64,000 nucleotides of DNA from Deinococcales bacterium (GTDB taxonomy: Bacteria; Deinococcota; Deinococci; Deinococcales; JAAFIG01): assembly GCA_031414595.1 (NCBI GenBank), contig JANNVX010000015.1, forward strand, positions 29,084 through 93,083, written 5' to 3'. The notes beneath the pieces are model-generated. The model saw nothing but the letters and a program-made list of their open reading frames with translations, did no database searches and had not been told where the DNA came from. The translations under genes were made by a program, and so were the position numbers. Within the stretch, counting starts at the first letter, position 1; the number at the start of each line of letters is the position of its first letter. This document shows, piece by piece, positions 52,300 through 56,304 of this stretch.

Positions 52300-52376
52300 A
52301 GGTTTCTCGAGTCTCTATATTGATCAATAGCTCGGTAGTTTTTTGATTTTTCGTATCGGTGACGCATTTGGTGTTC

Positions 52377-52402
52377 GTAGCAGCGAATCTCTGTGTTCGC
52401 CT
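52377..52402 (+). repeat. Degenerate GTAG REP
   Basis: GTAGCAGCGAATCTCTGTGTTCGCCT, similar to the copy at 25897-25923. Confidence 0.5.
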
Positions 52403-52469
52403 TATAGGATAGCAGAATTTGGATTTAGACTGAGAAATGTTCCAAACTATTGATAAGTGTATTTGAATT

Positions 52470-52506
52470 AAAGAACCGCTCGAGATTGTTTCCCGAGCGG
52501 TTCTTT
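52470..52506. terminator. Terminator after the S8 lipoprotein gene, with CTCGAG in the stem
   Basis: AAAGAACCGCTCGAGA/TCCCGAGCGGTTCTTT; one G-U pair in the minus-strand RNA. Confidence 0.8.
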
Positions 52507-52518
52507 TGCTTTGCAAGT

Positions 52519-55500
52519 TTACCAAGTCGCTGCAAAGCCAGCGACGCTCGTACCAAGGATGATGCTTAGTTGCGTTGGGAAATTTTGACTAAAATCAAAA
52601 TTAGTACAAGTGCTACCAGGAGATGGATAACACGAAAAGTATTCTGTAAATCCATCGTAATTGGTATCTATCAGGCTACGAAATGCGTATCCTGTGGCAG
52701 CCAGAATACCTGTGAAGCGGTAGACATAACCCTGCCCTTCGACCCAGTTCATGACAATTCGCACTGGTTCAGGGTTTGAGATAAAGGCATTGCCATCAGC
52801 ATTTACTTGTCGGGCTTCAATCATCAATCGTCCAGATGGGTTTGAGGCTGTGCCTTGAATATAGTACACAGGGGCTGTGGTGGACTGCAAACCAACTGTG
52901 GCAATGATACTGCCAACATATGCGCCATCGGCTAAACCAGTACGATTGAGGGTCACATTAACGGTTGTTGTGGCGTTGCCCGCCAGTGTTCCTGTGGTAC
53001 TGTTGCTGACTGTGGCAGATAAGAAAGCATTGGATGTGGTTATCGTAAAGTTACCCGTTGTGGCTGTCATGTTCTCTAAAGTTAAATCGCCAGTTGTTGC
53101 ACTGGTGCTTAAGTTAAGTCCCGGTAAGCCAGCGTTAAAAGCATTCTTAAATTGTAAGAATGCGCCAGGAAAACCGTTTCCAATTGCGCCATTGACGGCA
53201 GCTTGGGCATCCACCAAGCCGGCTCCACATCCTTTAGCACAGTCGTTCGCAGCATTTAAGACCGAAGCGGTGGTTTGTAAATAATAGGTGGCTTGGTAAA
53301 CATTGAGTTTTGGTAATGGCACAGCTTGGGCTAAACGCGCCGAGTTCATCAGGGCAATAATCCCAGCCACATGAGGGGCTGACATGCTCGTACCTTGTTT
53401 TTGACCATAGCCCCAAGTGGTGCAGCCTGTAGTAGGACTTGGCTGTCCTTGTGGTTGTAAAACTCCTAAGACAGTAATCATACAACCTTGGGTTGATAAG
53501 ACTTGATTTGGACTTAGAGCAGATAAACTATCCCCGCCAGGTGCAGTAATTTCGACTGATGTACCAAAGTTAGAAAAGTATGAACGTTTCGCCACAGTAG
53601 CTGTTGGACCAACTGAACCAACAGTAATCACACCATTTTGACCTGCTGGGGCGTATTTAGACGCATCATCGTTGCTATTTCCTGCCGAAACCACCACTAT
53701 TTTACCAGCCGCGTTAATTTGGTCTATTGCATCTTGGTAGGATTGGTCTGTACCTAACCCACCAAGGCTCATGTTCAAGACATCGGCTGGAAATGGGTTT
53801 GTAATGTTACTTGTGCCACTGCTGGTGGTGGTCGAAACGGTAATACCAGCCGCCCAGAGCATCCCACGAATAATATCGGAGCGCTGACCGCCAGAAGGTC
53901 CTAGCACCCGAACAGCCATCATTTCCACACCCCAACCAATTCCCGCAATGCCAGTTGAGTTATTGGTGCAAGCGCCAATTGTTCCAGCCACATGTGTCCC
54001 ATGGAAACTCGTACCAGAGTATGGTCCAAGGTCATAAGGGTCGTCGTCATCTACGGTATCGGGTTCAGTGCCTGCTGTGCTGTAACTCACAAAATCGTAC
54101 CCCGGTTGCCATTTATTGGTGGTGCAGTACAAATCTGGGTTAGTGCTGGGTTCTCGAGTGCTGTTGGTGTCATTGCCAATATAGTCGGCTTTGTTGTACA
54201 AAATACCTGTATCTAAAACTGCGACACGGACATTGGGTGTTCCAGTGGTTGTATCCCATGCCGAATTGATTTTTGCCATGCCGTAATGCCAAATATTATT
54301 GGGGCTGGTGGCAGTGGTCTGCACTGGGTAAAGTGGATCATTAGGGGTGGTGATATGAGCGCGGTCAATATAATTTGGCACTGCCCATTCAACATCGGCT
54401 CGAGCGCGGAGTTGGGCAATAAAATTCAGGGTATCCACGGCTATTGGTGATTCTGCTTGAATACCATCAATGCTGTTAGTGGCTGGGGTATTTTGGGCAG
54501 TCAAAACGACTGTTGTGCCGTAAAGTGGTTCTTGGTTATCGACAGCTAAAGTCCGCGCCGCCACACCAGCCGCAGGGGTTTTGAACTTGACAATGGCTTG
54601 CCCTTCGACAAATTCGGCTTCTTTGGGAATACCCAAGGCTTCTGGGCTACTGGACGTGACATACGGTACTTTAATTGTCCCAGAATAGGTTAGCCCAACA
54701 GGAGTGACAATATATATTGGGGCAGTCGAAATTTTAATGTTATCAAACTGAATTTTTGTGCAACTAGCGCAACCTGTAAGCGCAGCATTTGGTCCACCAC
54801 GAAAAGCAATTTCTTTTGCCCCAGCAATCCCACTGGCTCGAGTCACGACATTGGTTGTATTGACTACACCTTCCTCTGGGCTGCGGGTAAAACGCATCAC
54901 GGGTTCGTTCGCGATGACAAAGCTCATTCTAAAACGGTACGGGTCGTTGGCAGCTGTTGCGCCTTTTGGCATTTTCAAAGCTATCGTCACTTCGCCGGTA
55001 TCGCCAGACGCAAACGCCCGTGTCCAAGTTGGGGTAGCGGTGGCACAATTGGCGGTGCAGCGCCGTGCAACATAGCCATACTCGAGAACTTCATCGGTGT
55101 TATTAATATAACCAGCAGTTCGGGCTTGTTGGCTGGCAAGGGCGGCTTCGCTGATATGGAAAAATTGCAAATCGGCTTTATTGGCATCTACAGTGGTGGT
55201 ATCGTTTTGCATTGTATGGGTTGGTTTGACTTTCTGGGCATCAGTCGCGCTGGTAATCGGGTTGTTACCAAAGTCAAGGATGGTATTTAAGGCAGTTCCA
55301 CCAATATTGGTGCTTTTAGCAACTGCGTAGAGCGTTAGGTTGTCAAAGGCTTGGTTGGCAGTGATTTGAAAAGTTGCAGTAATGAAATTATCGGTATTGC
55401 CTATGTTGCTGATGTTCTGGTATGTGCCGGGGGTAATAAAAGTGACCGCAGAATCGGCTAATGCCGCCGCAGGACGTATTTGTCCAGAGTTGCTGTCTGA

Positions 55501-55638
55501 ACCAATTCCTAAGCTGGTTACGCCAACAACCCCAACAGAAAGATTGTTAATGGTGTCTGGCTGTTTATTTGGGGTTTGGGTACAAGCCGCTAAAGCCACA
55601 AAACCAATCAAAACCGACGAAATTATTTTGTGATTCAT
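52519..55638 (-). CDS. Large lipoprotein: unassigned ~300-aa N-terminal domain, S8 protease, beta-rich C-terminal domains
   Basis: Lipobox LAAC; triad motifs VLDTG, HGTHVAG and QGTSMSAPHV. Confidence 0.9.
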   Translation of the reverse strand: MNHKIISSVLIGFVALAACTQTPNKQPDTINNLSVGVVGVTSLGIGSDSNSGQIRPAAALADSAVTFITPGTYQNISNIGNTDNFITATFQITANQAFDNLTLYAVAKSTNIGGTALNTILDFGNNPITSATDAQKVKPTHTMQNDTTTVDANKADLQFFHISEAALASQQARTAGYINNTDEVLEYGYVARRCTANCATATPTWTRAFASGDTGEVTIALKMPKGATAANDPYRFRMSFVIANEPVMRFTRSPEEGVVNTTNVVTRASGIAGAKEIAFRGGPNAALTGCASCTKIQFDNIKISTAPIYIVTPVGLTYSGTIKVPYVTSSSPEALGIPKEAEFVEGQAIVKFKTPAAGVAARTLAVDNQEPLYGTTVVLTAQNTPATNSIDGIQAESPIAVDTLNFIAQLRARADVEWAVPNYIDRAHITTPNDPLYPVQTTATSPNNIWHYGMAKINSAWDTTTGTPNVRVAVLDTGILYNKADYIGNDTNSTREPSTNPDLYCTTNKWQPGYDFVSYSTAGTEPDTVDDDDPYDLGPYSGTSFHGTHVAGTIGACTNNSTGIAGIGWGVEMMAVRVLGPSGGQRSDIIRGMLWAAGITVSTTTSSGTSNITNPFPADVLNMSLGGLGTDQSYQDAIDQINAAGKIVVVSAGNSNDDASKYAPAGQNGVITVGSVGPTATVAKRSYFSNFGTSVEITAPGGDSLSALSPNQVLSTQGCMITVLGVLQPQGQPSPTTGCTTWGYGQKQGTSMSAPHVAGIIALMNSARLAQAVPLPKLNVYQATYYLQTTASVLNAANDCAKGCGAGLVDAQAAVNGAIGNGFPGAFLQFKNAFNAGLPGLNLSTSATTGDLTLENMTATTGNFTITTSNAFLSATVSNSTTGTLAGNATTTVNVTLNRTGLADGAYVGSIIATVGLQSTTAPVYYIQGTASNPSGRLMIEARQVNADGNAFISNPEPVRIVMNWVEGQGYVYRFTGILAATGYAFRSLIDTNYDGFTEYFSCYPSPGSTCTNFDFSQNFPTQLSIILGTSVAGFAATW

Positions 55639-55796
55639 TGTTCACCGCTTTCTAAGAAGTCTTGACCGAAGGTCTCAAAGTCACTGCTAAGCCCATTTGT
55701 ACCTATTGGCAGAGACACCCCTGTGAGTGCTACGTATTGGTTTTGTGGCTCGAGATTTGGCTTTTGATAGGGTTGCTTCCGAGTTTGTTCGATCAT
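55635..55796 (-). CDS. 53-aa peptide with a RiPP-leader-like YxxPxL motif (absent from the ORF track)
   Basis: SD GGAGG 6 nt upstream. Translation: MIEQTRKQPYQKPNLEPQNQYVALTGVSLPIGTNGLSSDFETFGQDFLESGEQ. Its TGA overlaps the S8 gene ATG (ATGA). Confidence 0.75.
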   Translation of the reverse strand: MIEQTRKQPYQKPNLEPQNQYVALTGVSLPIGTNGLSSDFETFGQDFLESGEQ

Positions 55797-55918
55797 TTAT
55801 TCCTCCGTGTCAAATTGTTATTTTAGAATTAGTCTACCCTTAGAAACCCAGTTAGTCGAAACTGAGAAGTCAACCAACTTTTGGATAGTCTATTCCCCAA
55901 CCCTTTGACTTGTATACC

Positions 55919-55952
55919 AGTTTAAGCGGGCAGCGTCACACCAGCGTTAGAC
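55919..55952 (-). promoter_or_regulatory. Putative promoter: -10 TAAACT with an 11-bp tandem direct repeat
   Basis: CAGCGTCACAC CAGCGTTAGAC at 55931-55952 (plus strand). Confidence 0.55.
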
Positions 55953-56034
55953 GAAAAGTGACCTTCAAAAGATGTAAAAATGCAATCAGACTCGAGCTAT
56001 AAAACTAGCCTAAGTCTGAACTGATAAACAAAAT

Positions 56035-56256
56035 CTAATAATGATCTAATTTAGAAAGCACATCTCGAGCCTCGGTAGGGTCGGTAATCGCTAATTTAGT
56101 GCCACCTTCAAAGTACAACACCAAACTGACATTGCTGCCCGAGGCTTGGGCTGGTGCATTGCGTCCAACTCCTGCCCCTAAACTACCAGAGACTTCGTAA
56201 TACTGGATGCTCTCGAGATTCACACCGCGATGCCCGACCCGTAAAAACTTTGCCAT
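56035..56256 (-). CDS. Small hypothetical protein
   Basis: TATACT 7 nt before the ATG; hairpin downstream at about 55986-56019. Confidence 0.65.
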   Translation of the reverse strand: MAKFLRVGHRGVNLESIQYYEVSGSLGAGVGRNAPAQASGSNVSLVLYFEGGTKLAITDPTEARDVLSKLDHY

Positions 56257-56304
56257 AAAGCAGAGTATAAACCAAATTTGGATTCGCTAAATTAGTGAAC
56301 TGGC

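Follow-up and report, generated by a model that had tools for sequence, protein, structure and literature searches.

Does the short open reading frame (ORF) that ends within the start codon of a lipoprotein gene in a Deinococcales genome encode a real peptide, and if so, what ties that peptide to the lipoprotein? The locus lies on the minus strand of a 64,000-nucleotide (nt) stretch of contig JANNVX010000015.1 (assembly GCA_031414595.1; the whole stretch is hereafter called the window). A sequence-only reading had described the ORF as a leader-like peptide of the kind found in peptides made on ribosomes and then modified after translation (RiPPs), coupled to a modular lipoprotein that contains a subtilisin. 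Our analysis established that the 53-codon ORF is a real gene and a member of a small-protein family. The evidence below further suggests a larger system in which the unit conserved is the pair of peptide and lipoprotein, copied about 15 times in this genome (4.49 Mb, 94% complete) with different cargo, and served in trans by one set of enzymes. The features of the peptide gene, in window coordinates, are as follows.

55635 to 55796 (stop included), minus strand: gene of the 53-amino-acid (aa) precursor-like peptide, one of 15 paralogs in the genome.
55802 to 55806, minus strand: GGAGG Shine-Dalgarno (SD) element by sequence reading, 5 nt 5' of the peptide ATG.
55719 to 55796, minus strand: leader-like part, residues 1-26, with a motif (Y10, P13, L15) of the type bound by RiPP recognition elements (RREs); T25 is penultimate and G26 last.
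55638 to 55718, minus strand: core-like part, residues 27-53, with the head [VI]-S-L-P-I-G-T and then a variable acidic tail.
55713 to 55715, minus strand: codon of Ser28, the predicted phosphate acceptor, by analogy with S3 of LppA and BsfA.

The ORF was recovered where it had been placed, with an identical translation and with the GGAGG element and ATGA overlap present. The TGA of the peptide ORF and the ATG of the 1039-aa lipoprotein ORF (55638..52519) share these four nucleotides, and the terminal codons of the peptide (GEQ, in ...EGEQ before the stop) also supply the lipoprotein gene's SD and the context of its start. The same arrangement recurs through the genome. The check proposed earlier was to look for a conserved YxxPxL...TG peptide upstream of homologues of the lipoprotein's N-terminal domain (N-domain). 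A related ORF of 45-55 aa was found directly upstream, on the same strand, at 15 of the 20 N-domain lipoprotein loci, which bears out the idea of a peptide-plus-lipoprotein system. Stop and ATG overlapped by 4 nt (ATGA) in 14 of the 15 pairs and by 1 nt in the other. One peptide copy starts with GTG, no canonical start was found for another, and a sixteenth, truncated copy (contig C102) has an unrelated gene downstream. Pairing extended to other genera when coordinates were compared: 5 of 8 peptide matches in genome G013 and 7 of 9 in G006 lay upstream of listed N-domain matches. Three further peptide matches had lipoproteins of the same type downstream, again with a 4-nt overlap.

Across 120 aligned database members, Y10, P13, L15, G26, S28 and P30 were invariant, and E16, T25, L29, I31 and G32 were at least 90% conserved (T in 115 of 120). 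The family motif is YxxPxLE...TG[VI]SLPIGT, followed by a variable acidic tail. Among 12 paralogs, the invariant Ser was encoded by six different codons from both codon families and the invariant Gly by all four codons; because synonymous codons vary at these positions, selection acts on the amino acid. Searched against 1.84 billion representative proteins, a profile of the peptide matched 189 at E<=0.001; almost all of these cluster representatives have 38-90 aa. Two long matches (1711 and 995 aa) were repeat proteins with a chance likeness. The only candidates for fusions were three proteins of 111-127 aa that probably reflect long start calls, and no real fusion was found.

The family has gone largely unnamed. 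Public records carry the 45-55-codon genes as unnamed or as 'hypothetical protein', with one evident mis-annotation, and they fall outside every Pfam and NCBIfam model. Of 107 stretches that matched a degenerate DNA pattern for TG[VI]SLPIGT, 17 also carried the family's upstream Y..P.L; the remaining 90 look like chance. Record titles were available for 10 of the 17, and every one read 'MAG: Deinococcales bacterium'. The peptide profile gave one borderline match among 22 genomes from four other families of the order. Literature searches found the string SLPIGT in no paper and nothing relevant on Deinococcales lipoproteins with small ORFs.

We then compared the peptide with known RiPP precursors. 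In lasso peptides, the leader carries YxxPxL between -17 and -12, with Thr (or Ile/Val) as the residue at -2 (PMC10368454). The window peptide has this spacing exactly, with Y10, P13, L15 and T25 falling at -17, -14, -12 and -2. Its language-model neighbours in the ESM Atlas include clusters named 'lasso RiPP family leader peptide-containing protein' (score 0.90). These two observations uphold the earlier description of a lasso- or RiPP-leader-like peptide. NCBIfam models gave weak matches among the 120 members, lasso_leader_L3 in 2 and lasso_cyano in 1, and in our literature search the YxxPxL motif occurred in papers on lasso peptides only. The peptide also matches the precursors of linear polyphosphorylated peptides (LPPs), which have the motif YxxPxVLxHQxIxFETxxS and a variable C-terminus (PMC13381572, Popov et al., Nat Commun 2026). 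Counted from Y10, the agreement covers +3 (P), +5 (L), +8 (H/Q), +11 (aromatic), +15 (T) and +18 (S), and the peptide family shows the LPP signature YxxPx[VL]...T(-1)-x-x-S(3).

The residue that closes the lasso ring was absent. Counted from V27, the core reads an invariant G-T at positions 6-7 and S/N/T/G/A at 8-9, and no Asp or Glu was found consistently at core 7-9. Counting instead from G32 placed acidic residues at positions 6 to 10 inconsistently, and this register was rejected. A lasso cyclase was detected in 3 of the 19 searched genomes of f1, the GTDB family to which the window's genome belongs, compared with 16 of 19 for the peptide profile. The earlier judgement that this is not a canonical lasso precursor was therefore upheld.

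The window locus has no RRE, cyclase or B protease nearby, as had been noted from the sequence; matches to PqqD and Transglut_core3 were found on other contigs. The suggested genome search for PqqD/RRE genes gave three PqqD matches, one of them a lasso-type RRE. This candidate is an 83-aa PqqD protein on contig C75 (lasso_PqqD_Strm, 3.5e-14); among solved structures it is nearest to two lasso RREs, TbiB1 (2.4e-6) and TfuB1 (1.9e-5). The gene for it and that of a 310-aa P-loop protein share 4 nt and form one operon, which is unlinked to the window. The 310-aa protein carries the motif H-x14-G-x2-G-x-G-K-T-x15-E-D, counted by eye, with the same spacing as the lasso-precursor-kinase motif H148-G163-G166-G168-K169-S170-D186-D187 (PMC10368454). 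The contig thereby holds, judged by sequence, both a discrete RRE and an HprK-like kinase, as LPP pathways do (PMC13381572).

The genome's only NTP_transf_5 (nucleotidyltransferase) protein is fused to Transglut_core3, the lasso B2-type peptidase (N-B2 fusion). A gene of the major facilitator superfamily (MFS_3) lies 5 nt downstream of the fusion gene and a CapD-like gene upstream. As possible counterparts of LppN and LppD (PMC13381572), the genome offers a single NTP_transf_5 protein and a neighbouring MFS_3 gene, not an ATP-binding cassette (ABC) pump, no genome-wide search for an MsbA-like partner having been made. A counterpart of the SipW-type peptidase LppS was not found, with no match to TIGR02228 in this 94%-complete genome. 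In 10 loci of the family, no precursor was detected beside the RRE-kinase genes by the family's regular expression. The co-occurrence of the RRE, the HprK-like kinase and the N-B2 fusion with the peptide family fits the earlier suggestion that the peptide is matured in trans. The absence of these enzymes near the window's peptide gene would reflect amplification and dispersal of the pair in this lineage, with the enzymes kept in single copy.

The same genome also contains a complete-looking lasso-like cluster on contig C58 (L065:4931-8954, minus strand). It comprises a precursor ...KPQLKILGNAFTEILKGGPVADGDYGRYIRIEFNP, an ABC exporter, a B2 protein, an Asn-synthase-like cyclase, which is the genome's only cyclase, and a 90-aa protein in the RRE position without a family match. 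The precursor of this cluster is unrelated to the peptide family.

Among the 19 genomes of the family, the RRE was found in 13, the kinase in the identical 13 with the two genes adjacent, and the N-B2 fusion in 14. The RRE-kinase genes and the N-B2 gene were themselves adjacent in G013 and G008. Three genomes, G009, G010 and G012 (87-91% complete), gave no match to the peptide, RRE, kinase or N-B2 fusion, and G009 and G012 each have a congener in which all four are present.

The strongest evidence for a tie between peptide and enzymes came from the sister family Deinococcaceae, in which 125 genomes were searched for the kinase and the N-domain. At two loci read fully, in high-GC genomes, a small ORF (...YTPPQVTALGAWEAVTLVGSVPFNG... 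and ...YEPPRVQDLGAWQAVTLIGSVGFN...) overlaps the lipoprotein gene by 14 nt. In both, the peptide-lipoprotein pair is divergent from the RRE-kinase genes, the N-B2 fusion lies alongside, and no cyclase was seen in the cluster. The peptides there follow the pattern Y..P.V...G.W..VTL..S... and show the full lasso consensus: Y, P, L/V, G at +9, T at +15 and Ser at core +3. The N-terminus of the cluster lipoprotein matched the N-domain profile at 97.9% (E 5.5e-13, 247 columns). The kinase was present in 51 and the N-domain in 57 of the 125 genomes. When the lists were compared by hand, both were present in 48, the kinase only in 3, the N-domain only in 9 and neither in 65. Of the 51 genomes with the kinase, 39 have an N-domain match no more than 3 kb away from it. 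Around 30 kinase loci (+-1.5 kb), such a peptide was found in 22, and a lipoprotein start followed the peptide in 19. The partner lipoproteins vary, from 398-425 aa with or without an LTD domain to about 1150 aa.

Which part of the lipoprotein is coupled to the peptide was answered by comparison of the paralogs. The lipoprotein of the window begins MNHKIISSVLIGFVALAAC, ending ...VALAAC, and has the following parts.

52519 to 55638, minus strand: gene of the 1039-aa lipoprotein, its ATG overlapping the peptide stop (ATGA).
55582 to 55638, minus strand: lipoprotein signal peptide, residues 1-19, with lipobox LAAC, whose Cys does not vary among 19 paralogs.
54694 to 55551, minus strand: common N-domain, residues ~30-315, a beta-sandwich in the AlphaFold2 (AF2) model, with 20 paralog loci in the genome.
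53224 to 54234, minus strand: Peptidase_S8 (subtilase) cargo, residues 469-805 (PF00082, E 4.3e-43).
52522 to 53223, minus strand: C-terminal region of ~230 aa without a family match.

Pfam and NCBIfam scans bore out the architecture of a lipobox, an unassignable domain of about 300 aa and a subtilisin. The S8 domain is a Peptidase_S8 family match, and its catalytic function is a prediction. A fervidolysin-type N-pro match ahead of it (residues 337-422) was weak (E 0.08) and below the cut-off. Residues ~30-315 matched no Pfam or NCBIfam model. The AF2 model of the N-domain had a pLDDT of 75.8 and a pTM of 0.79, and a Foldseek search of the PDB returned no structure at E<=0.001. The TasA fibre was considered as a fold relative and was unconvincing (Foldseek probability 0.6). 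WSSV VP37 (Z 5.8, the top score) and the SadB lipoprotein (Z 5.4), obtained in the wide VIA-align comparison, lay within the background range, and no fold was assigned.

The cargo behind the N-domain differs from paralog to paralog. It includes Exo_endo_phos with LTD and Big_2, RCC1, DUF5122 propellers, FG-GAP, SBBP, cadherin-like domains, PKD with Endonuclease_NS_2, CarboxypepD_reg/TIG and several regions without a match. The sequence-only reading had suggested that the peptide is processed by the S8 domain or inhibits it. Because the cargo varies among paralogs, this tie is rejected: the same type of peptide accompanies nuclease, beta-propeller, FG-GAP, cadherin-like and cargo-less paralogs. 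The constant partner of the peptide is the N-domain, not the protease. Among the five paralogs that lack the peptide are the PKD/nuclease protein and two CarboxypepD_reg/TIG proteins. At the latter two (G000:C9:4821-7172 and C54:17100-17400), an ORF that by eye resembles WD40 repeats precedes the lipoprotein gene, and its stop abuts the lipoprotein start. On the earlier suggestion that the peptide may complete the N-domain, a complex prediction from alignments of the two (domain residues 20-330) scored 0.00 and counts neither way.

Taken together, the balance of evidence tilts towards a cyclase-less, kinase-type RiPP precursor that derives from lasso machinery and is matured in trans, with the lipoprotein as an integral partner. 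Within this account, it is likely that the 53-aa peptide is the precursor of the RRE, kinase and N-B2 set. From sequence comparison, the pair would belong to a Deinococcales-wide system with the enzymes of phosphorylated lasso peptides and LPPs minus the cyclase. Peptide and lipoprotein would be co-translated from one mRNA, with the ribosome at the peptide stop sitting on the lipoprotein ATG. Leader residues 1-26, through Y10, P13, L15 and T25, would be bound by the discrete lasso-type RRE encoded on the other contig. The HprK-like kinase encoded downstream of the RRE gene may then phosphorylate Ser28 next to where leader and core meet, in the way that LppK and BsfK act on S3; by this analogy, we give phosphorylation of Ser28 an even chance. 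The nucleotidyltransferase-B2 fusion may add a further group and could remove the leader after T25-G26, its B2 domain standing in for the SipW-type peptidase, and the adjacent MFS transporter is a candidate exporter. Outside the cell, the core VS(P)LPIGT with its acidic tail may act together with the N-domain, most simply as its ligand. Binding of the mature peptide to the N-domain is the weakest step of the scheme and is doubtful.

Several observations weigh against this account. The 53-aa peptide has no signal sequence by protein analysis, and the exporter candidate rests on the neighbour position of the MFS gene. If the B2 domain cut after T-x, Ser would stand at core +2 in the peptides of the window's family, versus +3 in BsfA. 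The lasso_PqqD_Strm match of the 83-aa RRE candidate is below the cut-off of the NCBIfam model, and the 310-aa protein, with its motif counted by eye, matches HPr kinase weakly in sequence (E 0.22). Co-occurrence is imperfect: G004 (57% complete) and G017 (82%) have peptides and the N-B2 fusion, with no RRE or kinase found, and G007 (94% complete) has a single peptide, with RRE, kinase and N-B2 fusion unmatched. The counts also overstate independence, because the genomes are related. N-domain loci without a peptide occur at 5 loci in the window's genome and at 6 of the 7 examined in G007, so that the domain does not strictly need the peptide. Finally, the Deinococcaceae peptide matched the family profile weakly (E 0.0096, probability 4%), and its homology to the window's family rests on position and motif.

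The enzymes proposed here have close described relatives. In the LPP pathway, linear peptides are made from a precursor that is bound by an RRE, polyphosphorylated at S3 by an HprK-like kinase and cut after T-1 by the SipW-like peptidase LppS; the cluster reads lppA-K-B-S-D-N, contains a nucleoside triphosphate (NTP) transferase and an exporter, and is often near capsule genes (PMC13381572). The window system is likewise linear and cyclase-less, with equal spacing of the precursor motif, a variable C-terminus and polysaccharide synthesis genes nearby, here the CapD-like gene that adjoins the N-B2 fusion. It differs in having a lasso B2-type domain fused to the NTP transferase in place of the SipW-like LppS, and an MFS transporter as neighbour in place of an MsbA-like pump. 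It also occurs in Deinococcales, whereas LPPs are stated to be restricted to Bacillota (PMC13381572). Its precursor, obligately tied to a lipoprotein gene, is present in many scattered copies that the enzymes would serve in trans.

In the Bradymonas bsf pathway (BsfA/B1/B2/C/K/N/D), the RRE speeds an HprK-like kinase and Ser3 of the core is phosphorylated (PMC10368454). Phosphorylated lasso peptides of this bsf or paeninodin type share with the window system the YxxPxL leader, the recognition residue at -2, the RRE, the HprK-like kinase with identical motif spacing, the B2 leader peptidase and the nucleotidyltransferase. Here, in contrast, there is no macrolactam cyclase partner and no acidic ring-closing residue, N and B2 are fused, and a lipoprotein is the partner. 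The description of the system as undescribed must be narrowed: the enzymology has near relatives on record in LPPs and phosphorylated lasso peptides (PMC13381572, PMC10368454). We found no paper that joins Deinococcus, lasso peptide, kinase and lipoprotein, and the supplements of these two papers may hold wider lists of precursors or RREs.

Popov et al. give the roles of LPPs and of paeninodin-type phosphorylated lasso peptides as unknown (PMC13381572). One possible role here is that the modified peptide is not an antibiotic but an adaptor for the display of surface proteins, whose phosphorylated and perhaps further decorated head, produced in a constant proportion to each lipoprotein, docks onto the N-domain and tethers the lipoproteins (protease, nucleases, propellers) to the envelope or its polysaccharide, or activates them. 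We regard this as rather unlikely as it stands. If true, it would give LPP-like RiPPs a first physiological function, with one pathway serving about 15 dispersed precursor-client pairs. More generally, the data point to a related cyclase-less kinase pathway in a phylum other than Bacillota, with its precursor always coupled to a surface lipoprotein gene. In about 40% of the species searched in Deinococcaceae this coupling is seen as a compact cluster, and in the lineage of the window as about 15 dispersed modules. The lipoprotein would be a concrete, testable client for such peptides, and it would be unusual for a single RiPP enzyme set to serve many unlinked precursors. Some Deinococcus species are cultured, and a strain with the compact cluster, if available, would be a tractable host.

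Four other explanations were weighed. The peptide could be a dedicated cytoplasmic escort or anti-folding chaperone that pairs by a beta-strand with the nascent N-domain or signal region and so preserves the lipoprotein's competence for export, its RiPP likeness being no more than a strand-forming motif. The ATGA coupling, which 14 of the 15 paralogs keep and which recurs in other genera, the missing signal sequence and the constancy of the N-domain as partner all favour such a role. It leaves unexplained, however, the co-occurrence and clustering with the RRE, kinase and N-B2 fusion and the motif spacing equal to that of known kinase substrates, and N-domain paralogs without the peptide exist. 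We consider it improbable.

The ORF could alternatively be a regulatory leader, acting in cis or as a cytoplasmic signal that controls how far the lipoprotein gene is transcribed or translated, for instance as a ligand of the tetratricopeptide-repeat (TPR) sensor of a SARP/STAND regulator. Two flanking elements of the window locus bear on this.

55932 to 55948, minus strand: direct repeat AACGCT-N5-GACGCT with an 11-nt period, ~135 nt 5' of the peptide ATG.
52470 to 52506, minus strand: terminator-like hairpin of 16 bp followed by UUUAAUU, just 3' of the lipoprotein stop.

The repeat (AACGCTGGTGTGACGCT, two units) belongs to a pattern, [AG]ACGCT-N5-GACGCT, that occurs within 400 nt upstream of 4 of the 15 peptide genes (the window locus and loci on contigs C18, C49 and C86). 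Five of the 54 genome-wide matches lie upstream of peptide genes, with about 0.14 expected by chance. AfsR/SARP-like STAND regulators adjoin 4 of 13 peptide-lipoprotein loci, and one adjoins the RRE-kinase genes; the 11-nt-period repeats are candidate binding sites for SARP/AfsR-type regulators. These regulators and repeats, together with the translational coupling, would suit a regulatory ORF. It is nevertheless quite improbable: what is conserved is the amino-acid sequence of 24 residues in mid-peptide, not near the end, the lipoprotein gene has its own SD, the regulators are at a minority of loci, and the kinase and peptidase set is left unexplained. The hairpin (-27.1 kcal/mol, z -7.2 in the folding analysis) was missed by a simple consensus scan. 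The repeat and terminator that the sequence-only reading had given this unit were thus found, and its promoter was not, since the consensus scan detected no sigma-70-type promoter 5' of the peptide.

Further copies of the repeat in the form GACGCT-NNTGC-GACGCT were noted at C86:49599-51285, at C88:191691, 280377 and 284689, and on C67 and C56. Four paralogous regulators (Trans_reg_C/BTAD, NB-ARC and TPR; 828-1078 aa) lie on contigs C18, C49, C75 and C88 (loci L176, L177, L064:5069-7894 and L178), one of them divergent from the RRE-kinase operon.

A third possibility is that the peptide, once modified, is exported as a bioactive compound and sequestered by the N-domain at the producer's own surface. 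This would resemble LanI-type lipoproteins, which are encoded with a lantibiotic precursor and whose action on the mature lantibiotic takes place at the surface of the cell. In Deinococcaceae the lipoprotein gene directly follows the precursor gene and lies beside the enzymes, and the N-domain shows no invariant catalytic-type residues in the paralog alignment, both of which are compatible with immunity. Large and varied cargo (protease, nucleases, propellers) is unexpected of an immunity protein, though, and 15 precursor copies with an invariant head suggest a common structural role, not 15 toxins; we accord this explanation little probability. LanI proteins share with the window lipoproteins their being encoded with a RiPP precursor, and differ in that here the cargo is large and varied, with about 20 lipoproteins per genome; the likeness is one of arrangement. 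Myxobacterial SitA toxins are similar in layout, combining a lipobox, a conserved N-terminal domain and polymorphic cargo, including some nucleases. They have downstream immunity genes and are not known to have a conserved upstream peptide (PMC8546572), whereas the cargo here is mostly not toxin-like. Last, a true lasso precursor knotted by the C58 cluster, for which the cyclase, B2 protein, 90-aa protein in the RRE position and ABC exporter of that cluster and the lasso-like leader motif could be cited, is rejected as extremely improbable because C58 has its own, unrelated precursor, the cyclase is in 3 of 19 genomes versus 16 of 19 for the peptide, and the core has an invariant G-T at 6-7 and no consistent Asp/Glu at 7-9.

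Two further genes were noted 5' of the unit in the window. A 73-aa ORF without a Pfam or NCBIfam match (56035-56256, minus strand) lies between the upstream region of the peptide and a Uma2-family gene (PF05685; 56305-56895, minus strand). A second Uma2-family gene lies shortly 5' of another peptide-lipoprotein unit (G000:C75:72812-73435). Proximity to two units may be chance, as the genome could be rich in this family.

The palindrome CTCGAG is by far the commonest hexamer of the genome, with 23,235 copies in 4.49 Mb, or one per 193 bp, 24 times the expectation from base composition. About 10 copies fall within window positions 52300-56300. This abundance resembles that of the highly iterated palindrome HIP1 of cyanobacteria. 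L15-E16 of the peptide is spelled CTC GAG in 11 of 12 paralogs.

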